A stretch of DNA of 46,229 nucleotides from Oscillatoriaceae cyanobacterium M33_DOE_052 (GTDB lineage: Bacteria > Cyanobacteriota > Cyanobacteriia > Cyanobacteriales > Laspinemataceae). This document shows positions 10,165-36,175 of this stretch, one piece after another (the stretch's first letter is position 1; each line of letters starts with the position of its first letter). Location of the stretch: NCBI GenBank assembly GCA_015296065.1, contig DVDU01000250.1, forward strand, positions 1-46,229, written 5' to 3'. Position numbers and translations under genes: made by a program. The notes under the pieces were generated by a model. It did no database searches and was not told the origin of the DNA. It worked only from the letters and a program-made list of their open reading frames with translations.

Positions 10165-10175
10165 TCCTTGGTCCA

Positions 10176-10227
10176 ATTGATAATTGATAATTAACAATTG
10201 ATAATTATCAATTATCAATTATCAATT
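10176..10227. repeat. Palindromic heptamer array, (AATTGAT)n switching to (AATTATC)n, of the STRR-like TTGATAA family
   Basis: ttgataattgataattaacaattgataattatcaattatcaattatcaa lies 35 nt upstream of the maf start. Confidence 0.8.
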
Positions 10228-24688: not shown

Positions 24689-25558
24689 TCAGAGGATATC
24701 GCTGCTAATGCGACTTTCGCCGATTTTCGGTCTGCCATTATGGCTCCACCAGTCCTGCCATTTAGAGCGGTCCATGTTGATTTGCCGAACGCCGTCAGGC
24801 GTCGCGTTAGCATCGGTGGTGACGCTCTCATTGTATATTTCCACCAACTCCAGCAGCGTCATTGTATAATCTTGCAGCAAGTCTTTACAGGCGAAGAGCA
24901 AATCGCCGCGATCGCCCAGCGCATTCATTTTCTTAGCATCCCAAATCGAGCCAATAAAGCGAATAAACACCGAAGCTGAAAGCTCTTCGATCACATCAAC
25001 CACTTGAGAATCCAAATAAAACGAGTACCGATCCACCACTTGACCCAGAGCTGATTGCAGACTAGAACACTCAGAATAAAGATAATCCAGCCAGTCCATT
25101 TCTTCCCCTTGGGGCGTCACCACCGGCGCCACCTTCAACAAATCCAGAAACTTCACTTCCTGAAAATAGGTTTCGTCAAATAAATCTCTAATATTTTGAT
25201 AATCTTTATCTGGTTTCACTTCTACGGATGCTTTAAACATATCAAATAACAAATAAATTTGTTTTCTCAAAACAAATCTTAGTTGCCGAAAAGCTATTTC
25301 TCTAAATTTCTTTTTTTCCTTCTCTTGATTAGCTTCTACCGTTTGATTTACCGTAAAAAGCACCACCAATATTCCTACCAGCTCTGCCGCTAAATTCAAA
25401 GAAAAATCTTTTAACCATAAATCACAAACCCCACCAAGTGAAAAATTATTCAAACATCCCCAAAGAGAGATAAAAGACAACAGCAAAACTAAAAATAAAA
25501 TTGCATAAGATTCCTTTAAAAAATCTGGCGATAAAAATTTCCTGAATGAATGCCACAT
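24689..25558 (-). CDS. Hypothetical membrane protein with two N-terminal transmembrane helices. Its 5' half is strongly AT-rich and its 3' half has host-like GC.
   Basis: Hydrophobic segments AILFLVLLLSFISLWGCL and LAAELVGILVVLFTV are present. The first ~500 nt of the gene are visibly AT-rich relative to the flanks. A TTGATAA array directly abuts the start codon. Confidence 0.55.
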   Translation of the reverse strand: MWHSFRKFLSPDFLKESYAILFLVLLLSFISLWGCLNNFSLGGVCDLWLKDFSLNLAAELVGILVVLFTVNQTVEANQEKEKKKFREIAFRQLRFVLRKQIYLLFDMFKASVEVKPDKDYQNIRDLFDETYFQEVKFLDLLKVAPVVTPQGEEMDWLDYLYSECSSLQSALGQVVDRYSFYLDSQVVDVIEELSASVFIRFIGSIWDAKKMNALGDRGDLLFACKDLLQDYTMTLLELVEIYNESVTTDANATPDGVRQINMDRSKWQDWWSHNGRPKIGESRISSDIL

Positions 25559-25570
25559 AAAAAATAGCCC

Positions 25571-25632
25571 ATTGATAATTGATAATTGATAATTGATAAT
25601 TGATAATTGATAATTGATAATTGATAATTATC
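25571..25632. repeat. (TTGATAA)n array of about 8 units, 13 nt upstream of the start of the 24689-25558 gene
   Basis: ttgataattgataattgataattgataattgataattgataattgataattat. Confidence 0.8.
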
Positions 25633-26002
25633 CCCGTGACTTCATAGGGGCAGGGTGAGCAATGCCCAAGACAATCTCTAAGGCGACCCCACAGCCATAT
25701 CAGTAGGCATTGCCCACCCGACAATCTTTTGCAGGCTGACAGAAATCTATCATATCCCACCCTTGGGGACTTCTGGACTAGAGACCCCAAGGCTCCATAA
25801 CAGATTTAGGGCTATTTCCGGTCACAACAAAGACAGTGACGAGAGCGACTACCATCTCCCAACGACACCAAGAGAGCTGCAGCCATCACCACGAAGCAAA
25901 AACCGTGGACAGTTGAGTAAGTGACCTCAAGAGGCGATTTTACTTCTGACGCCGCCAAAGCCAATCGGAATCAGTTAGCAGTTATGAACGGGTAGGTTCA
26001 AA

Positions 26003-26608
26003 ATGCGCGTCTACACTTCCATCCTCTTGTCCGGTCTGCTCCTCGCCAGTTTCACCAACAGCGCCCGAGCCATTTCATCTCGCAATGGCGAATCCTCCGC
26101 ACCCGCCACCGCCACAATCATACAGGTACAAACTGAAAAAGATTCCTTGATATCCCAGCCAGCTCTCACCGGTGAGTCCCACTGGGCCAATCTCAAACAT
26201 CGCGGTAGCGGTCGAGTAGAAACCAGCCAAGATGCTCGCAGTAGCGATCGCGTCAAGTCAGAAGATGCTCGCGGTAGCGGTCGCGTCGAAAATACCCCCG
26301 ATGCTCGCGGTAGCGGTCGCGTCAAGTCAGAAGATGCTCGCGGTAGCGGTCGCGTCGAAAATACCCCCGATGCTCGCGGTAGCGGTCGCGTCAAGTCAGA
26401 AGATGCTCGCGGTAGCGGTCGCGTCGAAAACAGCGAAGACGCCCGGGGCAGTGGCCGAGTGAAATCAGAAGACGATCGCGGTAGCGGTCGCGTGGAAAAC
26501 AACGAAGACGCCCGGGGCAGTGGCCGAGTGAAATCAGAAGACGATCGCGGTAGCGGTCGCGTCGAGAAAGATAACGCTGGTCGGGGCAGCGGCAGGGTGG
26601 AAGCGTAA
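26003..26608 (+). CDS. Secreted repeat protein: a signal peptide followed by about 13 tandem 11-aa units (DARGSGRVKSE alternating with DARGSGRVENTP)
   Basis: MRVYTSILLSGLLLASFTNSARA is a Sec signal. The 33-nt DNA units (gatgctcgcggtagcggtcgcgtcaagtcagaa) are arranged in 66-69-nt super-repeats. The antisense ORF 26011-26502 was rejected. Confidence 0.6.
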   Translation: MRVYTSILLSGLLLASFTNSARAISSRNGESSAPATATIIQVQTEKDSLISQPALTGESHWANLKHRGSGRVETSQDARSSDRVKSEDARGSGRVENTPDARGSGRVKSEDARGSGRVENTPDARGSGRVKSEDARGSGRVENSEDARGSGRVKSEDDRGSGRVENNEDARGSGRVKSEDDRGSGRVEKDNAGRGSGRVEA

Positions 26609-26740
26609 GAACTAGAGTAGGCTTTTGCGTGCTATTAATTAGCCTACTCTAAAACCCACGTTTCTGTCAAGAGTTTTGCCAAAAAAATTTCCTACCTGCT
26701 GGGGATGAATCTCCAGCAGCTTTACCATGCTTTCGGGCAA

Positions 26741-28207
26741 CTATTCCCGAAGAATCCCTCTTTGCTTGATGCTATATTCGGTAGTTTGAGACAAACTCGG
26801 CCAGGGGGAAAAATGTAATTTCAAAACCCGCTTGTCTGGGTCGGCGTCCCAATGGCTGTAGTCATTTTTCCACTTAGCCAAAAAAACTGGCTGGGTTCTG
26901 CCTAAAAATTGGACTAACTGGTGATAAATCAGCTCAGACATGGGAGAATTTATCGTGACTCCTACCTGAGTTTCTAGCTCTAGTGCCAGATGCTGTCTAG
27001 TTTCTGCATAAATAATTTTGGCGCGGTAAATGCCAGTGAGAAGGGTTTGCAGTTCAGGGCATCTTATCGCTTCGTCCAGCATATATTCGGTAATATTAGT
27101 GCCGTCTAGAATCAGACAACTATCGGAGCGACCAGTGACAGCAATGATATTGGGCAACCAATTGGCACTTTTTGCCAGCACATCGACCCAAGGGTTATCC
27201 CCTGGTGGTAAATGTTTTGATGTGAGGATGGCTTGTTTTAGTTTTTTCCAGCGATAAAACGCTACTTTATCATAGACCATGTAGCGCACTAGGGGAATGC
27301 CTTGCCAGCGGGTGATGCAAAGACTGCCATCAACAATTTCCAGGAAGGCGTCAAAGGCGATCGAGTGAAAAAACAGCGGTATTGGCGGTGTAATTCCCAG
27401 TTCCTTAGCCAGAGCGGGGTGTTGCTCCAATATTTGCCGAACCGCTACCGAGCCTAAAGATTCCACCCCCAAACCACCCGTATCAGCACTACCATACATA
27501 GAAAGCATAAAAGTAGTTTCTGGGGGGATACCAGCTTCAGTTTGCCAATAACTGCGAATGCTTTCGGGAAAGGGTTCGCCTAACAGTACATACTTTAATT
27601 TCGCCACAGGAAGAGTTTTCCCCAACTCCTGAGCCGTGAGGTGCAGGTGAGATATCGCCGCTGGGGTGATTAAAATAATCATCTGTTCCACCAAATTATC
27701 CAGCCGCTGCACCATCTCGATAATTTCCTGAAAATTAGTGCCGGGAGTAAACACCCAGAAAGGATAGCTCACCTGCATGGCCACATTTTTCACCCCCCAG
27801 GAAAAATGTTCTCCCGGCAACCAGCTCCCCAACCCCAACCCTACAATTACCATTGTTTTGCGCTGATGGATGGCAAAAGATTGCTCTAAAAAGAGCCTGG
27901 TTGCCAGAGGAAGAAAGCGGCTGCTGGGCTTCAAAACTGGCCAGAAAAAAGGGTTGCCAGAAGAGCCAGAAGAGCGAAAAATGGCCAAGATTTTTTCCCG
28001 GTCTCCCCCCAGCAATTCCTCATAAGGATAAGCTAAGGCATAAGATTGCTTATCCGTCACTGGTAATTGGTGAAATTCCACATTAGTGTTGACGCCTCGG
28101 TTCGCTAAGAACTGCCGGTAAGCAATCACCTGCTGTTGCACTCTCCGGGCCACCTTTTCCCCTTGTAGTTGCCAACCGAGAGTATGTTTCTCCCAGGCTC
28201 TCTCCAT
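26741..28207 (-). CDS. Adenylate-forming enzyme of the ANL superfamily, phenylacetate-CoA ligase / F390-synthetase / GH3-like
   Basis: SSGSSGNPFFWP resembles the phosphate-binding A3 motif (S/T)SG(S/T)TGxP. YGSADTGGLGVE resembles the A5 YGxTE motif. The length is 488 aa. Confidence 0.55.
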   Translation of the reverse strand: MERAWEKHTLGWQLQGEKVARRVQQQVIAYRQFLANRGVNTNVEFHQLPVTDKQSYALAYPYEELLGGDREKILAIFRSSGSSGNPFFWPVLKPSSRFLPLATRLFLEQSFAIHQRKTMVIVGLGLGSWLPGEHFSWGVKNVAMQVSYPFWVFTPGTNFQEIIEMVQRLDNLVEQMIILITPAAISHLHLTAQELGKTLPVAKLKYVLLGEPFPESIRSYWQTEAGIPPETTFMLSMYGSADTGGLGVESLGSVAVRQILEQHPALAKELGITPPIPLFFHSIAFDAFLEIVDGSLCITRWQGIPLVRYMVYDKVAFYRWKKLKQAILTSKHLPPGDNPWVDVLAKSANWLPNIIAVTGRSDSCLILDGTNITEYMLDEAIRCPELQTLLTGIYRAKIIYAETRQHLALELETQVGVTINSPMSELIYHQLVQFLGRTQPVFLAKWKNDYSHWDADPDKRVLKLHFSPWPSLSQTTEYSIKQRGILRE

Positions 28208-28358: not shown

Positions 28359-29639
28359 ATGAACCGAAAAATTTGGCAAGTTATTGTAATCTCGATCGGT
28401 GGTTTATTAGGATTATTGGCCCTGATTCTATTTGGGGGCAAATTCTGGATTAGCCAACAGGCGAAACAAATGTCCCAAGATTGGGTAAAATTTGCCAGCC
28501 AGTTTCCCAAAACTGCAACCAACGACTCAGCACGCCAGCTTAATCAACTGACCATAAAACTGGGTATCGGTCCGGCGGTATCCAGCCAGGAAGAGCCGCC
28601 ACTCCCTGGGGGACAAATCCCAGATTTTGAAAACATCCGAGAAGAATTAGATAAGTTTTTGAACAGTCAGCTAGAACAACCCACTAGCAATGTGCAGATT
28701 CCGGCTGTCCTGCAAACTTATCTTCAAAAGCACGCTGGGGAAATTGCTGCGATTCGCCGTCACATTGCCAGTAGTGAACCCCCAGTTTGGCACATGGACA
28801 TAGAGCGGTTTTTAGATATTTCTGCCCCTCTGCCCAATCTGGGTGGTTTGCTGAAATTACAAAAGATTTTCATGGTGGATATTTTGGTCAAAAATCGGCT
28901 TGACAAAAATGCTGATTTATGGTCAATCATGGCGGTATCTTATCAGCTAAATCAAGCGCTGCTGAACCGTCCAGATGCGGTCTCTCAGTTATTGGCTTTA
29001 GCAGTGGCGAAGCTGCAAGCTGGGGTAGTGCGCCAACTCAATACGATGCCTCCAGAGGCGCTGGTAAATATGATGGCAGTGGATTATCAAAAATCCCTGC
29101 AGTGGTCTTTGATGTTAGAATCTTGGATGATGTACGGTTTGGTTAAACTTCCCCCGAAGGATGAGGGGAATATGGGGTTACAATCCCTGGAGCTAATGTA
29201 TTTACAATTATCTGCAATGGATACGACTGCCAAAAATCGGCAGGCATTTACTAAGTTGGAGGAGGAAAATACCTGCACTTTTGACAAAGATGCTTTTGAG
29301 CGACAGCGAGAGAGTTCGATCGCCTGGTGGAATGAGTTGGCCCGGATGGGAATGCCTGATTGGGCCGGTCAATGGCAAAATGCAGGTAAAGTGATGCTAG
29401 ACTGGGAACTTACCGCGCAAATATTGGCGGCAAAGACAGCGGCGGCGACTACAGGGAAATGGCCATCAGAATTGCCAGCGCAGCCGTCAAAAGTTTGTCC
29501 GGGTGAGCGGTGGATTTATCAATTAAACGGCGATGGTACTATGTCCATATCGTTCAGCCGACAACTACCCTGGTTGCAGCCAACCACCTCAAGTTTACAG
29601 CTCCCCCTAGACTACACCGCTCCACCTTGGCAAAAATAA
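28359..29639 (+). CDS. Hypothetical protein with an N-terminal transmembrane anchor, 426 aa
   Basis: The N-terminus has VIVISIGGLLGLLALILFGG. No recognised domain. It is divergent from the ANL gene. Confidence 0.5.
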   Translation: MNRKIWQVIVISIGGLLGLLALILFGGKFWISQQAKQMSQDWVKFASQFPKTATNDSARQLNQLTIKLGIGPAVSSQEEPPLPGGQIPDFENIREELDKFLNSQLEQPTSNVQIPAVLQTYLQKHAGEIAAIRRHIASSEPPVWHMDIERFLDISAPLPNLGGLLKLQKIFMVDILVKNRLDKNADLWSIMAVSYQLNQALLNRPDAVSQLLALAVAKLQAGVVRQLNTMPPEALVNMMAVDYQKSLQWSLMLESWMMYGLVKLPPKDEGNMGLQSLELMYLQLSAMDTTAKNRQAFTKLEEENTCTFDKDAFERQRESSIAWWNELARMGMPDWAGQWQNAGKVMLDWELTAQILAAKTAAATTGKWPSELPAQPSKVCPGERWIYQLNGDGTMSISFSRQLPWLQPTTSSLQLPLDYTAPPWQK

Positions 29640-30813: not shown

Positions 30814-31962
30814 CTAGCCCCGTAACTGCACAGGCATGAGTAAATGGGTCATTTTGACGCCACCGAGGGGGACGATGATTACTGGGGAATTAGCAGAATT
30901 TAGCTGCATGGAAATTTCGGTGGAGGGGAGGTTTTTTAACGATTCCATTGCATATTTGGCGTTGAAAGCGATATCTAGGCTGTCTCCAGAAATTTGGGCG
31001 GTCATGGATTCGCTACCGCTGCCCACATCGGCGGCTTCTACGGAGAGGGATAACTGCTGGGTTTCGCTGTCAATAATGAATTTCACGATGTCGTTTTTTT
31101 GGCTGGCCAAAATGGCGATGCGATCGAGTGCGCCGATGAGCTGGCGGCGGTCAACTGTGACCTGAATTTGGAACCGATCGGGCAGTAACTGGCGGTAAGC
31201 GGGGTATTGCCCCTCAATAGTGCGGCTAGTCAGGCGTTGGTCGGCCAGTTCAAACACTACTTGTCCTTGGTCCAGATGAAGATTTACCAATAGCGGTTGG
31301 TCAGAGGTGGTATTTTGTCTAATGCCAATCATCTTTTCCAATTCCCGCAAAGCCTTCGCGGGAATTGTCACCTCAAATTCCTCGTTAGAGTCAGTTTCAC
31401 TGGAATTCTCGGTTTCCACCACAGCCAAACGGTGTCCATCGGTGGCGGCAAATTCCAGGGTATCTGGTCCGAGGATCAGGTGAACCCCCGTCAACACTTG
31501 TTTGGTTTCATCGCTACTGGTGGCAAACACCGAACCGCGCAAGCCTTCCAAGAGAGCTTCTGCACTCAGTTGCACAGATTGGTCATTTTCAATCTCTGGC
31601 ATAGATGGGAATTCTTCCGCACTCATCCCCCGGACTTGATACCGTCCTGACTGGGAAGTGAGGTTAACCGTGTTCTCGCTGGTGTCATTGTCGATCGTCA
31701 CTTCACCGGCTGGCAATCTAGCGGCAATATCGTGCAGCAGCTTGGCGGGGATGGTAATTTCGCCAGCAGCCTCCACCTTCGCCGCAAAAGCCGTGCGCAG
31801 TCCGAGGCTGAGGTCAAAAGCAGTTAATTCTACCTGCTGGGAGTCAGTATCGGCTTTAACCAGAATATTGCCTAACACTGGTTGTGCAGGACGGGAGGGA
31901 ACGGCGCGACTGACAAAGGAGAGGTGGCTGTTCAGGTCGCTTTGGTTGCAGAGAAATTTCAT
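30814..31962 (-). CDS. dnaN: DNA polymerase III beta subunit (sliding clamp)
   Basis: MKFLCNQSDLNSHLSFVSRAVPSRPAQPVLGNILVKA and the three-domain clamp length of 382 aa are diagnostic. The ORF extension up to 32061 was rejected. Confidence 0.9.
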   Translation of the reverse strand: MKFLCNQSDLNSHLSFVSRAVPSRPAQPVLGNILVKADTDSQQVELTAFDLSLGLRTAFAAKVEAAGEITIPAKLLHDIAARLPAGEVTIDNDTSENTVNLTSQSGRYQVRGMSAEEFPSMPEIENDQSVQLSAEALLEGLRGSVFATSSDETKQVLTGVHLILGPDTLEFAATDGHRLAVVETENSSETDSNEEFEVTIPAKALRELEKMIGIRQNTTSDQPLLVNLHLDQGQVVFELADQRLTSRTIEGQYPAYRQLLPDRFQIQVTVDRRQLIGALDRIAILASQKNDIVKFIIDSETQQLSLSVEAADVGSGSESMTAQISGDSLDIAFNAKYAMESLKNLPSTEISMQLNSANSPVIIVPLGGVKMTHLLMPVQLRG

Positions 31963-32084
31963 CAGGTGTGATCTAGTTATGAAGGTTGGGGCGGCTATAG
32001 TGCCTCCGGCGTCCGGCATCTCGCCGGAGTTGCCTTGAGGAGCGCTGCTACGCACGCCCATCTGGGAGGGTATATTTTAGCACT

Positions 32085-32310
32085 GCTGTGGGGTGGATGT
32101 GCGCCAGCATTTGGGGGGATGCCTGTGGAAAAACTGTGGAAAACTGCCCCAATTTGTCCCAGAGGAGAAACCCGGTTTGTTCACCAAATCCTCCTGATCA
32201 AACCTAGATTGTCGCAGAAACCCGGTTTCTGGCGGCGGTGAATTTTCCACAGCAAGGGGGGTATTTTTCCACAAAAAATGGGGTGTTTTTTCACAGAAAG
32301 GGGGCGATTT
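32085..32310. other. oriC: Chromosomal replication origin (oriC) core: a DnaA-box cluster between dnaA and dnaN
   Basis: TGTGGAAAA occurs twice (32114-32122 and 32125-32133). TTTTCCACA occurs twice (32233-32241 and 32255-32263). TTTTTCACA occurs once (32277-32285). Weaker boxes are near 32085-32098. A ~22-nt periodic GGGG...T5CCACA...A-tract pattern is present. An AT-rich stretch, tatattttag, lies at 32061. Confidence 0.7.
32156..32220. repeat. Copy of the ~65-bp AGAAACCCGGTTTCT-bounded dispersed repeat, inserted within the DnaA-box cluster
   Basis: AGAAACCCGGTTTGTTCACCAAATCCTCCTGATCAAACCTAGATTGTCGCAGAAACCCGGTTTCT. Confidence 0.6.
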
Positions 32311-32364
32311 CCTGTTTTAGCTGCTTTTGTTAGTGCGGTTGGTGCGGTAAATGGGGAGGCGATA

Positions 32365-33756
32365 CTAACGTGGCGCCTGACGGCGATCGCCACTACGAGC
32401 TTTCAGAGCATCCTCGATCTGGCGGAGCTGCTGGGCAAACTCCGGCTCGGCGTGGTGGCGCTGGGCGACTTTTTCACAACTATAGAGGACGGTGGTGTGG
32501 TCTTTGCCGCCAAACTCTTCCCCAATTTTCGGCAAGCTCAAATCTGTGTGCTGGCGCATTAAATACATACCAATTTGCCGCGCTTGGCTGATTTCCCGGC
32601 GGCGAGAATTGCTCTTGAGGTCTTCGACAGATATGCCAAAGGTTTCCACTACTACGGCCATTACCGCCTCGGGACTGGTGCCAAACTGGGGGGTTTGGGG
32701 TTCTAAAATCGGGGCAATGTTGGCCACAGTCATGGGTAAACCGGATATGGAGATATAGGCGATCGTGCGAATCAAAGCCCCCTCTAGTTCCCGAATGTTG
32801 GAGGTGTAGCGTCCGGCGATGTACTCGATCGCCTCTCGCGGCAAGCGCATATTTTCATACTCCGCCTTTTTTTGCAAAATCGCCATCCGCGTTTCCAAGT
32901 CGGGAGCCTGGATATCAGCAATCAAACCCATTGAAAACCGGGAAGTCAACCGCTCCTGCAAACCCTTAATTTGATTGGGAGGCCGATCGGCAGCCAATAC
33001 CACTTGCTTACCCGCCTCATGCAGAGTATTAAACGTGTAGAAAAACTCCTCTTGGGTGTATTCCTTCCCCTCGATAAACTGGATATCATCCACTAACAGC
33101 ACATCCGCCGCCCGGTAATGCTCCCGAAAGCCCTGCATCCCGTCCTTGCGAATCGCCGCAATCAGGTCATTAGTAAACTGTTCCGTGGAAACATAAAATA
33201 TCTTGGCCTCGGGGAAAATCTCCAGGCGATAATGTCCGATCGCCTGCATCAAATGCGTTTTCCCCAACCCCACCCCGCCACACAAAAACAAAGGATTAAA
33301 CTCCCGTCCCGGCGACTCCGCCACCGCCAGAGACGCCGCATGAGCCATCCGGTTATTCGCACCCACCACAAACCGAGAAAAAGTGTACTTAGGATTCAGT
33401 TCTGTGGGACGATGGGAGTGACTGGCGCCGTTGACCATCCCCGAAACATCAGAAACCTCCGAGGAAATAGGCTTCGGCCAGAAATATTCCCCATCCGCCA
33501 CATCCCCAGTCGCCGTGGTAATTTCAATTTCTATCCGCTGCCCCAACAAGTCCTGCACCACATCAGCAATGGTTTTCACATAATATTTTTGCAACCAATT
33601 CCGGGCAAACGGGTTAGGAGTGCAGATCGTCAAGCAGTTATTTTCCAGGCGTTCCGCCCGAGCGGTTTTAATCCAAGTTTCAAAAGTGGGGCGGCTCAGC
33701 TGCAGCTGTAGCCGCTCCAATACTTGATTCCAGAGACTTTCCAGCAGAATTTGCAC
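32365..33756 (-). CDS. dnaA: Chromosomal replication initiator protein DnaA
   Basis: The AAA+ Walker A motif [10 protein letters not shown], the DnaA signature region and the C-terminal DNA-binding helix ([23 protein letters not shown]) are present. The length is 463 aa. Confidence 0.95.
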
Positions 33757-33794
33757 TGATTACCTCGCCGTAGTTCGGGGACGGGGATGGGGAG

Positions 33795-33867
33795 ATAATT
33801 AACAATTAACAATTAACAATTGATAATTATCAATTATCAATTATCAATTATCAATTATCAATTATCA
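33795..33867. repeat. Palindromic TTGATAA-family heptamer array 39 nt upstream of the dnaA start codon
   Basis: ataattaacaattaacaattaacaattgataattatcaattatcaattatcaattatcaattatcag. Confidence 0.8.
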
Positions 33868-35295: not shown

Positions 35296-35304
35296 TTTCT
35301 GGGG

Positions 35305-35356
35305 ATAATTGATAATTATCAATTATCAATTATCAATTATCAATTATCAATTATCC
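35305..35356. repeat. Palindromic TTGATAA-family heptamer array between htrA and def
   Basis: gataattgataattatcaattatcaattatcaattatcaattatcaattatcc. Confidence 0.8.
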
Positions 35357-35917: not shown

Positions 35918-36175
35918 AATCACGCCGTGCCCTTTCGTGGGGTTGGTCACGGCGTGATTAATATTATTTCTCACATGAATTAAGCTAATGATGCTGTGCC
36001 TTTTCGTGGGGGTGGGCACGGCGGGATTAAAGTTGTTTGTCATATGAATTAAATTAAGGATGCCGTGCCCCTACGGTTGGCTATTGGTAGGGGCACGGCG
36101 TGATTGAGATTATTCGTCACATGAATAACATTGACGTAGCTGTGCTACTACGGGTGCAATTAACCGATATCAACC
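35918..36175. repeat. Tandem array of about 3.5 units of roughly 70 nt. Each unit has a 12-13-bp perfect hairpin built on a CACGCCGTGCCC / GGGCACGGCGTG core, followed by a conserved AT-rich box TCACATGAATTA.
   Basis: The units fall at about 35918-35989, 35990-36058, 36059-36130 and a degenerate unit at 36131-36175. The stems are aatcacgccgtg/cacggcgtgatt and gccgtgcccctac/gtaggggcacggc. The array lies between the convergent def and MVP genes. Confidence 0.6.

Follow-up and report, generated by a model that had tools for sequence, protein, structure and literature searches.

Heterocyst differentiation is under the master regulator HetR, which is inhibited by the pentapeptide RGSGR of PatS and HetN; PatX, with RG(S/T)GR, is a third carrier and occurs in HetR-containing filamentous cyanobacteria (PMC7761841). 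Adding either RGSGR or ERGSGR to the medium inhibits differentiation (PMC7761841). In Nostoc, PatX is exported by means of two predicted Sec signal peptides and has no activity in a version that lacks the signal peptide. It is cleaved by PatP (Alr1666), a periplasmic protein of the Peptidase_S13 family, and HRGTGR, by binding HetR, keeps it from binding DNA (PMC12756182). For PatS and HetN, processing is believed to take place in the cytoplasm, without export (PMC12756182). In filamentous cyanobacteria that form no heterocysts, the role of the HetR–PatX pair has yet to be settled (PMC11298460, PMC12756182). Here we analysed a contig of 46,229 nt from Oscillatoriaceae cyanobacterium M33_DOE_052 (DVDU01000250.1; its whole length is referred to as the window) and identified a gene for a 201-aa protein with 11 RGSGR motifs, hereafter the window protein, which is very probably a derivative of the PatX family.

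PatX of Nostoc/Anabaena sp. PCC 7120 (Asl2332) and its orthologues share with the window protein an N-terminal Sec signal peptide, a variable hydrophilic linker and (H)RG[ST]GR, and occur in filamentous cyanobacteria. However, canonical PatX has one motif at or near its C-terminus and a length of 57–114 aa among our matches (75–88 aa in the published rows available to us), whereas the window protein has 201 aa and 11 motifs, and its gene, unlike the usual patX, is not near hetR and is without the DIF1 promoter motif. PatS and HetN of Anabaena PCC 7120 carry the same RGSGR, which is essential for HetR inhibition (PMC7761841). PatS, however, is a cytoplasmic peptide of 13–17 aa, and its profile (NF047415) did not match the window protein with its 201 aa and predicted signal peptide. 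HetN has one internal motif in a short-chain-dehydrogenase-like protein, whereas no HetN-type dehydrogenase domain was detected in the window protein by Pfam.

Compared with the NCBIfam profile NF047413 (heterocyst-inhibiting protein PatX), residues 1–73 alone scored 35.2 bits (E 1.5e-8) over profile positions 1–67 of 69, which is above the curated cut-off of 30 bits; with the full-length protein, the match was again limited to aa 1–73 and scored 23.3 bits (E 8e-5). These residues align with the single-motif PatX proteins P0011, P0034 and P0018 (numbered as in our database search, see below) from the initial MR via ARAI to HRGSGR, where the single-motif proteins end (...PHRGSGR in P0011 and ...QHRGSGR in P0034), and the start MR-x-Y-x-S-I-L-L-S-x-L-L-L is common to canonical PatX and the window protein. 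The Pfam PatX family (PF28278) matched a nine-motif allele of the gene (P0001) weakly and the relative P0002 fully. In the window protein itself Pfam found no domain beyond a 20-residue match to Phage_base_V (E 0.003, below the cut-off), which was dismissed as chance. The motif RG[ST]GR near the C-terminus, by which PatX is recognised, is present in the window protein; the small size and single motif of PatX are not. An earlier note on this DNA had stated that no known domain was present and had left the motif unrecognised. The former was wrong in view of the N-terminal 73 residues, and, as for the latter, RGSGR is the HetR-inhibiting pentapeptide and the N-terminal third of the protein a complete PatX module. 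Judged by its sequence, the precursor is a complete PatX followed by eleven further units.

The N-terminus reads MR, then VYTSILLSGLLLASF, then TNSARA|I, and thus has a basic n-region, a 15-residue hydrophobic core (maximum Kyte-Doolittle mean of 2.33 over 10 aa) and an AxA cleavage site after residue 23; the published cleavage sites of PatX, in the rows considered, lie at positions 18–25. The signal peptide was judged from inspection, hydropathy and alignment to canonical PatX, rather than by a dedicated signal-peptide predictor, and at this level of prediction the signal peptide and short unique region described earlier ahead of the repeats were upheld, the unique region having 43 aa up to the start of the array (Table 1).

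Perfect RGSGR was found in 11 of the 12 units of the following array, with the cores RGSGRV preceded by H, A (seven times), D (twice) or G. The 36-nt units are of the RGSGRVENTPDA type (RGSGRVE-xxx-DA, 12 aa), and the 33-nt units encode RGSGRVKSED-A/D (11 aa). At 26200..26565, Tandem Repeats Finder reported repeats of two periods, 33 nt with 10.6 copies and 69 nt with 5.3 copies, the latter at 90% matches and a score of 459. The tandem array of the earlier note was therefore confirmed, although with 12 units instead of about 13, and so was its 33-nt period, but the units alternate between two lengths and the super-repeat is 69 nt rather than 66–69 nt. The final unit is RGSGRVEA followed by the stop, so that the last motif ends 3 residues before it, as in P0003, P0020 and P0027. 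As shuffled versions of the window contained a mean of 0.5 and a maximum of 2 RG[ST]GR per six-frame translation, eleven motifs are far beyond chance, and a six-frame survey of the window revealed no other credible RG[ST]GR open reading frame (ORF). The array has a grand average of hydropathy (GRAVY) of -1.6 and 8.9% hydrophobic residues, which suits an unfolded, protease-accessible chain. No dibasic or KEX2-like sites were evident in the window protein.

Table 1 Features of the amplified-motif gene and its flanks, in coordinates of the window
Feature	Coordinates	Strand	Basis or remark
Divergent intergenic region, 444 nt, upstream	25559..26002	.	(ATTGATA)x8.4 at 25571..25629; inverted repeats 25653..25719 and 25761..25792
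Coding sequence of the putative PatX-family precursor with amplified RGSGR motif (201 aa + stop; ATG start)	26003..26608	+	ORF list; NCBIfam PatX match
Predicted Sec-type signal peptide, aa 1–23 (MRVYTSILLSGLLLASFTNSARA then I)	26003..26071	+	Inspection, hydropathy, alignment
Antisense ORF, 163 aa, not a gene	26011..26502	-	By-product of sense composition
Unique non-repetitive spacer, aa 24–65, signal peptide to first motif	26072..26197	+	Corresponds to variable middle of PatX profile
First motif, HRGSGR	26198..26215	+	End point of single-motif PatX proteins
Tandem array, 12 units alternating 36/33 nt (69-nt super-repeat)	26201..26605	+	Tandem Repeats Finder; motif anchoring
Degenerate unit 2, RSSDRVKSEDA, two non-synonymous core changes	26237..26269	+	Unit alignment
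Two identical 69-nt super-repeats, units 3–4 and 5–6	26270..26407	+	One missing from the 178-aa allele
Stem-loop, 11-bp stem, between convergent genes	26613..26651	.	-24.5 kcal/mol, z = -4.4, 0/200 shuffles as good

The 18-nt core occurs as five DNA alleles, all of which encode RGSGRV and which differ by up to six synonymous and no non-synonymous changes. With 30% of single changes being synonymous, the chance that all differences are synonymous is about 7e-4, which indicates purifying selection on the RGSGRV core. The spacers, on the other hand, vary in their amino acids (KSEDA/KSEDD; ENTPDA/ENSEDA/ENNEDA/ETSQDA/EKDNAG). Among the internal units, unit 3 is identical to unit 5, unit 4 to unit 6 and unit 8 to unit 10, which points to recent duplication of 69-nt blocks. 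The best reading of these patterns is that tandem duplication of a 69-nt unit amplified the C-terminal motif to 11 perfect RGSGR copies.

Two other assemblies contain the same region. The JGI contig Ga0073934_10001942 differs from the window by 1 mismatch in 11.6 kb and carries an identical gene (locus L016, 2900..3505). In the ENA contig ERZ27247351:k141_1518008 the flanks are 99.7–99.8% identical and the gene has exactly one 69-nt block fewer, which leaves 178 aa and nine motifs (P0001). The exactly periodic stretch is only 183 nt and should be resolved by an assembly with k = 141, although all three assemblies may be short-read, and from the assembled sequences a copy-number polymorphism of 11 versus 9 motifs is likely. 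The nine-motif allele in a near-identical contig also lends support to the unstable copy number that had been predicted.

Of 1.84 billion representative proteins, 34 matched in a profile search. They included canonical PatX proteins with one motif and 57–114 aa (P0011, P0013, P0015, P0018, P0028, P0034 and P0035) and signal-peptide proteins with 2–6 RG[ST]GR (P0002–P0010, P0012, P0017, P0020, P0024, P0026, P0027, P0029, P0031, P0032 and P0036), as well as P0016, an unrelated repeat protein that was discarded, and P0025, which is without the motif. Seven of the 34 matches (P0014, P0019, P0021–23, P0030 and P0033) were discarded as translated CRISPR arrays, in which ...SLRGSGRF... is interleaved with two other frames. 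These seven "proteins" of 168–442 aa interleave ...SQSPSLRGSGRF..., ...NPLHCGAVVAS... and ...VSIPFIAGQWSL... at a spacing of ~25 codons, and appear to result from translation of a CRISPR repeat array in three frames, that is, spurious calls which contaminate RGSGR searches.

Four motifs each were counted in P0002, P0009, P0010 and P0012, five in P0024 and six in P0036, and no other match among the 34 exceeds six, compared with eleven in the window protein and nine in its sister allele. In the real relatives the motifs are 10–51 aa apart and the spacer sequences are unrelated, while RGSGR is invariant; since the spacers vary freely around an invariant motif, RGSGR is the unit under selection. 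Short-period tandem units were also found in relatives, of 12 aa in P0024 and 21 aa in P0012, and their amplifications look independent because the flanking residues differ among the multi-motif proteins. Like the window protein, the multi-motif PatX-like proteins have a signal peptide and several RGSGR, and several of them end in RGSGR-[LVI]-E-[AV]; unlike it, they have 2–6 motifs and mostly long non-repetitive spacers. They are unnamed, annotated as "hypothetical", or PatX by profile. On NF047413, P0002 (68 bits), P0009 (56 bits) and P0010 (38 bits) pass the cut-off, P0003 (28.7 bits) and P0012 (18 bits) fail it, and P0024 and P0036 gave no match in the scan. P0012 (NEP60705.1, "hypothetical protein") is encoded in Symploca sp. 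SIO2G7 (JAAHGZ010000531.1; locus L009, 4119..5753), has four motifs in 21-aa repeats, and its gene lies directly upstream of hetR (Peptidase_S48 and HetR_C) on the same strand, which is the canonical position of patX. Thus, a multi-motif protein can be the patX of a genome and be missed by the profile cut-off. A scan of genome contigs with the family alignment found one locus, L007, in the Oscillatoriales metagenome-assembled genome S07.Bin090, which encodes a three-motif orthologue of P0003 and P0004 and has no hetR within 10 kb, and the species of the window itself was not among the results. A scan of metagenome contigs with the window protein gave 258 pattern matches, none of which was confirmed.

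We consider that the gene encodes an exported PatX-family precursor which is cut into multiple HetR-inhibiting peptides, with a probability of roughly 0.6. As the N-terminal module is homologous to PatX and the motif is identical, we infer export, cleavage into units and activity on HetR for the window protein by analogy with PatX. The signal peptide would direct the precursor to the periplasm, where periplasmic peptidases would cut the hydrophilic, probably unfolded array at its short acidic spacers; the cutter may be a PatP-type enzyme (Alr1666-type, Peptidase_S13) as in Nostoc, possibly together with trimming enzymes. Each precursor could then release up to 11 penta- or hexapeptides (H/A/D/G-RGSGR), which would spread along the filament, enter cells, bind HetR and block its DNA binding. 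With the repeat, each round of translation and export would thus deliver a multiple of the inhibitor dose, and recombination or slippage, by adding or removing units, would tune that dose. Of the two possibilities raised in the earlier note, a precursor with several cores that is cut into repeated peptides and a secreted disordered or cell-surface protein, the first is favoured here, and the second is kept as the main rival.

The host lineage suggests that the partners HetR and PatP may be present. The contig is labelled Planktothricoides sp. SpSt-374, and its PurH is 100% identical to HIK12648.1. Planktothricoides is a non-heterocystous filamentous genus of Oscillatoriales, and Table S3 of Xu et al. 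2025 scored P. raciborskii FACHB-1261 with HetR = 1, PatP = 1 and PatX = 0 (NF047413, trusted cut-off), so that HetR and PatP exist in this genus and PatX is "missing" there. The class "hetR present, patX absent" makes up 12% of genomes in published surveys, with Planktothricoides raciborskii included. Judged by the genus, the window organism may have hetR and patP as well.

Several points weigh against a cleaved precursor of HetR inhibitors. PurH of the window is only 74% identical to that of named Planktothricoides, so the genus label is loose and the inference from it weak. The full-length protein fails the PatX cut-off (23.3 vs 30 bits). Although patX is usually next to or near hetR, which is the norm for non-heterocystous filamentous cyanobacteria, no HetR was found in the 26 kb upstream or the 19.6 kb downstream of the gene, by Pfam or by six-frame tblastn with the Symploca HetR, and the 46-kb window is thus without hetR. 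The two DIF1 sites (TCCGGA) in the window are not near the gene. None of the five loose matches in the window to a HetR-box-like palindrome, which we take to be GAGGGG-N5-CCCCTC, lies within 4 kb of it, and their number is not above chance. Every motif is followed by V-E/K, so that the chain would have to be cut behind the second Arg to give a peptide ending in RGSGR. When patX was deleted in Leptolyngbya BL0902, which forms no heterocysts, the effects looked largely hetR-independent (PMC11298460), which makes the target in non-heterocystous organisms uncertain. Finally, the array was modelled as beta-rich with moderate confidence by AlphaFold2 (AF2).

Some of these points would be expected if the product were a secreted disordered protein of the periplasm or cell surface that acts uncleaved, with RGSGR not serving as a source of HetR ligand; this is the main rival to the cleaved precursor. 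Such a protein might, for instance, bind polymers of the cell wall or sheath as a multivalent polyampholyte, or serve periplasmic peptidases as a decoy or competing substrate. A signal peptide ahead of a strongly hydrophilic low-complexity array suits such a protein, as do the missing hetR nearby and the HetR-independent PatX effects in BL0902, and the cleavage of the window protein is itself deduced from PatX. However, the profile identifies the N-terminal module as a full PatX, one of the multi-motif relatives (P0012) occupies the patX slot beside hetR, and the relatives conserve RGSGR only and leave the spacers free, a pattern more in keeping with the release of a short peptide than with a scaffold; we regard the uncleaved protein as unlikely. 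The AF2 model would speak instead for a folded beta-solenoid-like protein (adhesin, ice-binding or amyloid-like) with one 11–12-aa unit per rung. The single-sequence model had strands in every unit, a pLDDT of ~70–80 in the array (62 overall) and a pTM of 0.54, and its top Foldseek matches, none of them significant, were beta-solenoids and the FapC amyloid. AF2 tends, however, to build solenoids from perfect repeats, and here models 2–5 dropped to a pLDDT of 45–56, the best Foldseek match had E 0.02 with TM <=0.37, a single hydrophobic residue (Val) per unit and the GRAVY of -1.6 leave no core, and the irregular spacing of 10–51 aa in the relatives is incompatible with a conserved solenoid. 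The beta model, without a significant structural neighbour, was judged to be a repeat artefact, and a solenoid fold is very unlikely.

The repeated core-like units and the adjoining adenylate-forming-like ORF could also be read as a multi-core precursor of a ribosomally synthesized and post-translationally modified peptide (RiPP), with cores modified or ligated by that convergent PaaK/ANL-like enzyme. Cyanobacterial multi-core RiPP precursors (cyanobactin PatE-type, microviridin and prochlorosin-type) do share with the window protein several repeated cores per precursor, but they have a leader with recognition sequences and clustered maturation enzymes, whereas the window protein is headed by a predicted Sec signal peptide in place of a leader. 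Genes for RiPP maturation (cyanobactin proteases, YcaO, radical SAM or lanthipeptide synthetases) were absent from the scanned window ORFs of at least 175 aa, and the two genes are convergent with a stem-loop between them. The neighbour itself (26741..28207, minus strand, 488 aa) is weakly PaaK-like (NCBIfam E 1e-7, where cut-offs are 646–700 bits; PDB 2y4o, E 0.003), and it recurs beside none of the relatives, the neighbours there being RPE65, histidine kinases, aldehyde dehydrogenase or hetR. The link to a convergent ANL-type gene suggested in the earlier note therefore found no support, and a RiPP precursor is highly improbable. A 491-aa ORF that follows P0002 was considered as a counterpart of the 488-aa neighbour and proved unrelated. 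It is next to negligible, in our view, that the sense ORF is not a gene at all, being non-coding repeat or the reverse side of a real antisense gene, as the earlier note had allowed for. The antisense frame is indeed open for 198 codons, and an exact look-up of the sense protein in a collection of 15 billion proteins was negative. Yet third codon positions coincide between the sense and antisense frames, and antisense stops arise only opposite a sense Tyr, or opposite His or Gln after a codon ending in T; as Tyr occurs once, His twice and Gln four times in the window protein, the openness is explained by composition. In the homologue L003, on non-repetitive DNA, the sense frame has 162 aa and the antisense at most 39 aa, and homologues on such DNA keep the signal peptide and motif with the antisense frame closed. 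In unit 12 a change from CGC to AGG keeps Arg in the sense frame only, the antisense residue becoming Leu. The sense product matches the PatX profile, and the sense gene was called in both the JGI and the ENA pipelines. RGSGR translations of CRISPR arrays carry spacers of at least ~25 codons between repeats, whereas the window array is without such spacers. The antisense ORF is accordingly regarded as an artefact. Synonymous core changes were rejected as proof of the coding strand, being mostly silent on both strands. The negative exact look-up beside an identical JGI gene call is an inconsistency between two indexes and not biology.

Since PatX is known and few-motif proteins already pass its profile, the cleaved-precursor reading does not describe a new kind of system. 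A complete PatX module that carries a near-perfect array of 11 copies, of which a copy-number variant exists, is apparently an extreme variant that has been undescribed: the literature searched had no mention of multiple or tandem RGSGR motifs or of multi-motif proteins, and the paper that defined PatX, which is said to be Elhai & Khudyakov 2018 (Mol Microbiol 110:931), was outside this search and may mention multi-motif forms. We tentatively suggest, as a possibility short of even odds, a bacterial "polyprotein morphogen", in which one Sec-exported chain gives up to eleven HetR-inhibiting peptides and changes of the 69-nt unit between populations tune the dose. If true, dose would set the range of lateral inhibition (filament fragmentation, necridia, hormogonium spacing) in a cyanobacterium without heterocysts, and part of the "hetR present, patX absent" class may consist of repeat-expanded or divergent PatX below the profile cut-off. 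As both the window protein (23.3 bits) and the hetR-adjacent Symploca protein (18 bits) fall below it, published counts of "PatX-less" HetR genomes are probably inflated.

HetR with RGSGR inhibitors is the textbook case of bacterial activator-inhibitor (Turing-type) patterning, and the 11-copy precursor with its 9-copy sister allele offers a ready dose series for inhibitor production rate versus patterning. With its many identical junctions, the protein would likewise be a substrate on which to map where PatP cuts, a specificity listed as unknown by the discoverers of the enzyme. In eukaryotes, the arrangement has a parallel in hormone precursors with multiple copies. Yeast MF-alpha-1, animal neuropeptide and multi-domain plant CLE precursors have a secretory signal and tandem bioactive peptides with short spacers, and give several ligands per precursor; the window protein would follow the same logic, with no sequence or evolutionary relation to them. 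The Phr pentapeptides of Bacillus are Sec-exported, processed extracellularly and re-imported to act on a cytoplasmic regulator. PatX peptides resemble them in being exported, cut outside the cell and directed at a cytoplasmic regulator, again with no sequence relation.

In the upstream intergenic region, the first inverted repeat has 14-nt arms with 93% complementarity and 39 nt between them, and the second has 11-nt arms (CCTTGGGGACT/AGACCCCAAGG) with 10 nt between them; perhaps they are operator sites or RNA structures. Rfam gave no match in this region, and the sigma-70 "promoters" predicted there were rejected as merely the ATTGATA heptamer array. Perfect (ATTGATA)n arrays recur in intergenic regions of the window (25571..25629, ~33790..33867, 35301..35355 and 10175..10227), and are similar to the STRR (short tandemly repeated repetitive) sequences known from filamentous cyanobacteria. 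Downstream of the gene, the stem-loop has no clear U-tract and was missed by a consensus terminator scan, and is possibly a terminator or a stabiliser.

The gene content of the window is otherwise of dnaA-dnaN, a cox operon, psbP, gvpF/L and other housekeeping genes. Next to the PaaK-like neighbour, the two closest ORFs to the gene, at 24689..25558 (minus strand, 289 aa) and 28359..29639 (plus strand, 426 aa), have no Pfam or NCBIfam match and are kept in the sister contigs. As dnaN and dnaA are adjacent, at 30814..33756 (minus strand), the window is probably at or near the chromosomal replication origin. At 36170..38815 (minus strand), between peptide deformylase and a UbiA prenyltransferase, we also identified an 881-aa protein homologous to the Major Vault Protein of eukaryotes, with four Pfam Vault matches (E 5e-71), Vault_2/3/4 and MVP_shoulder (E 1.5e-51), which is present in the sister contig too.

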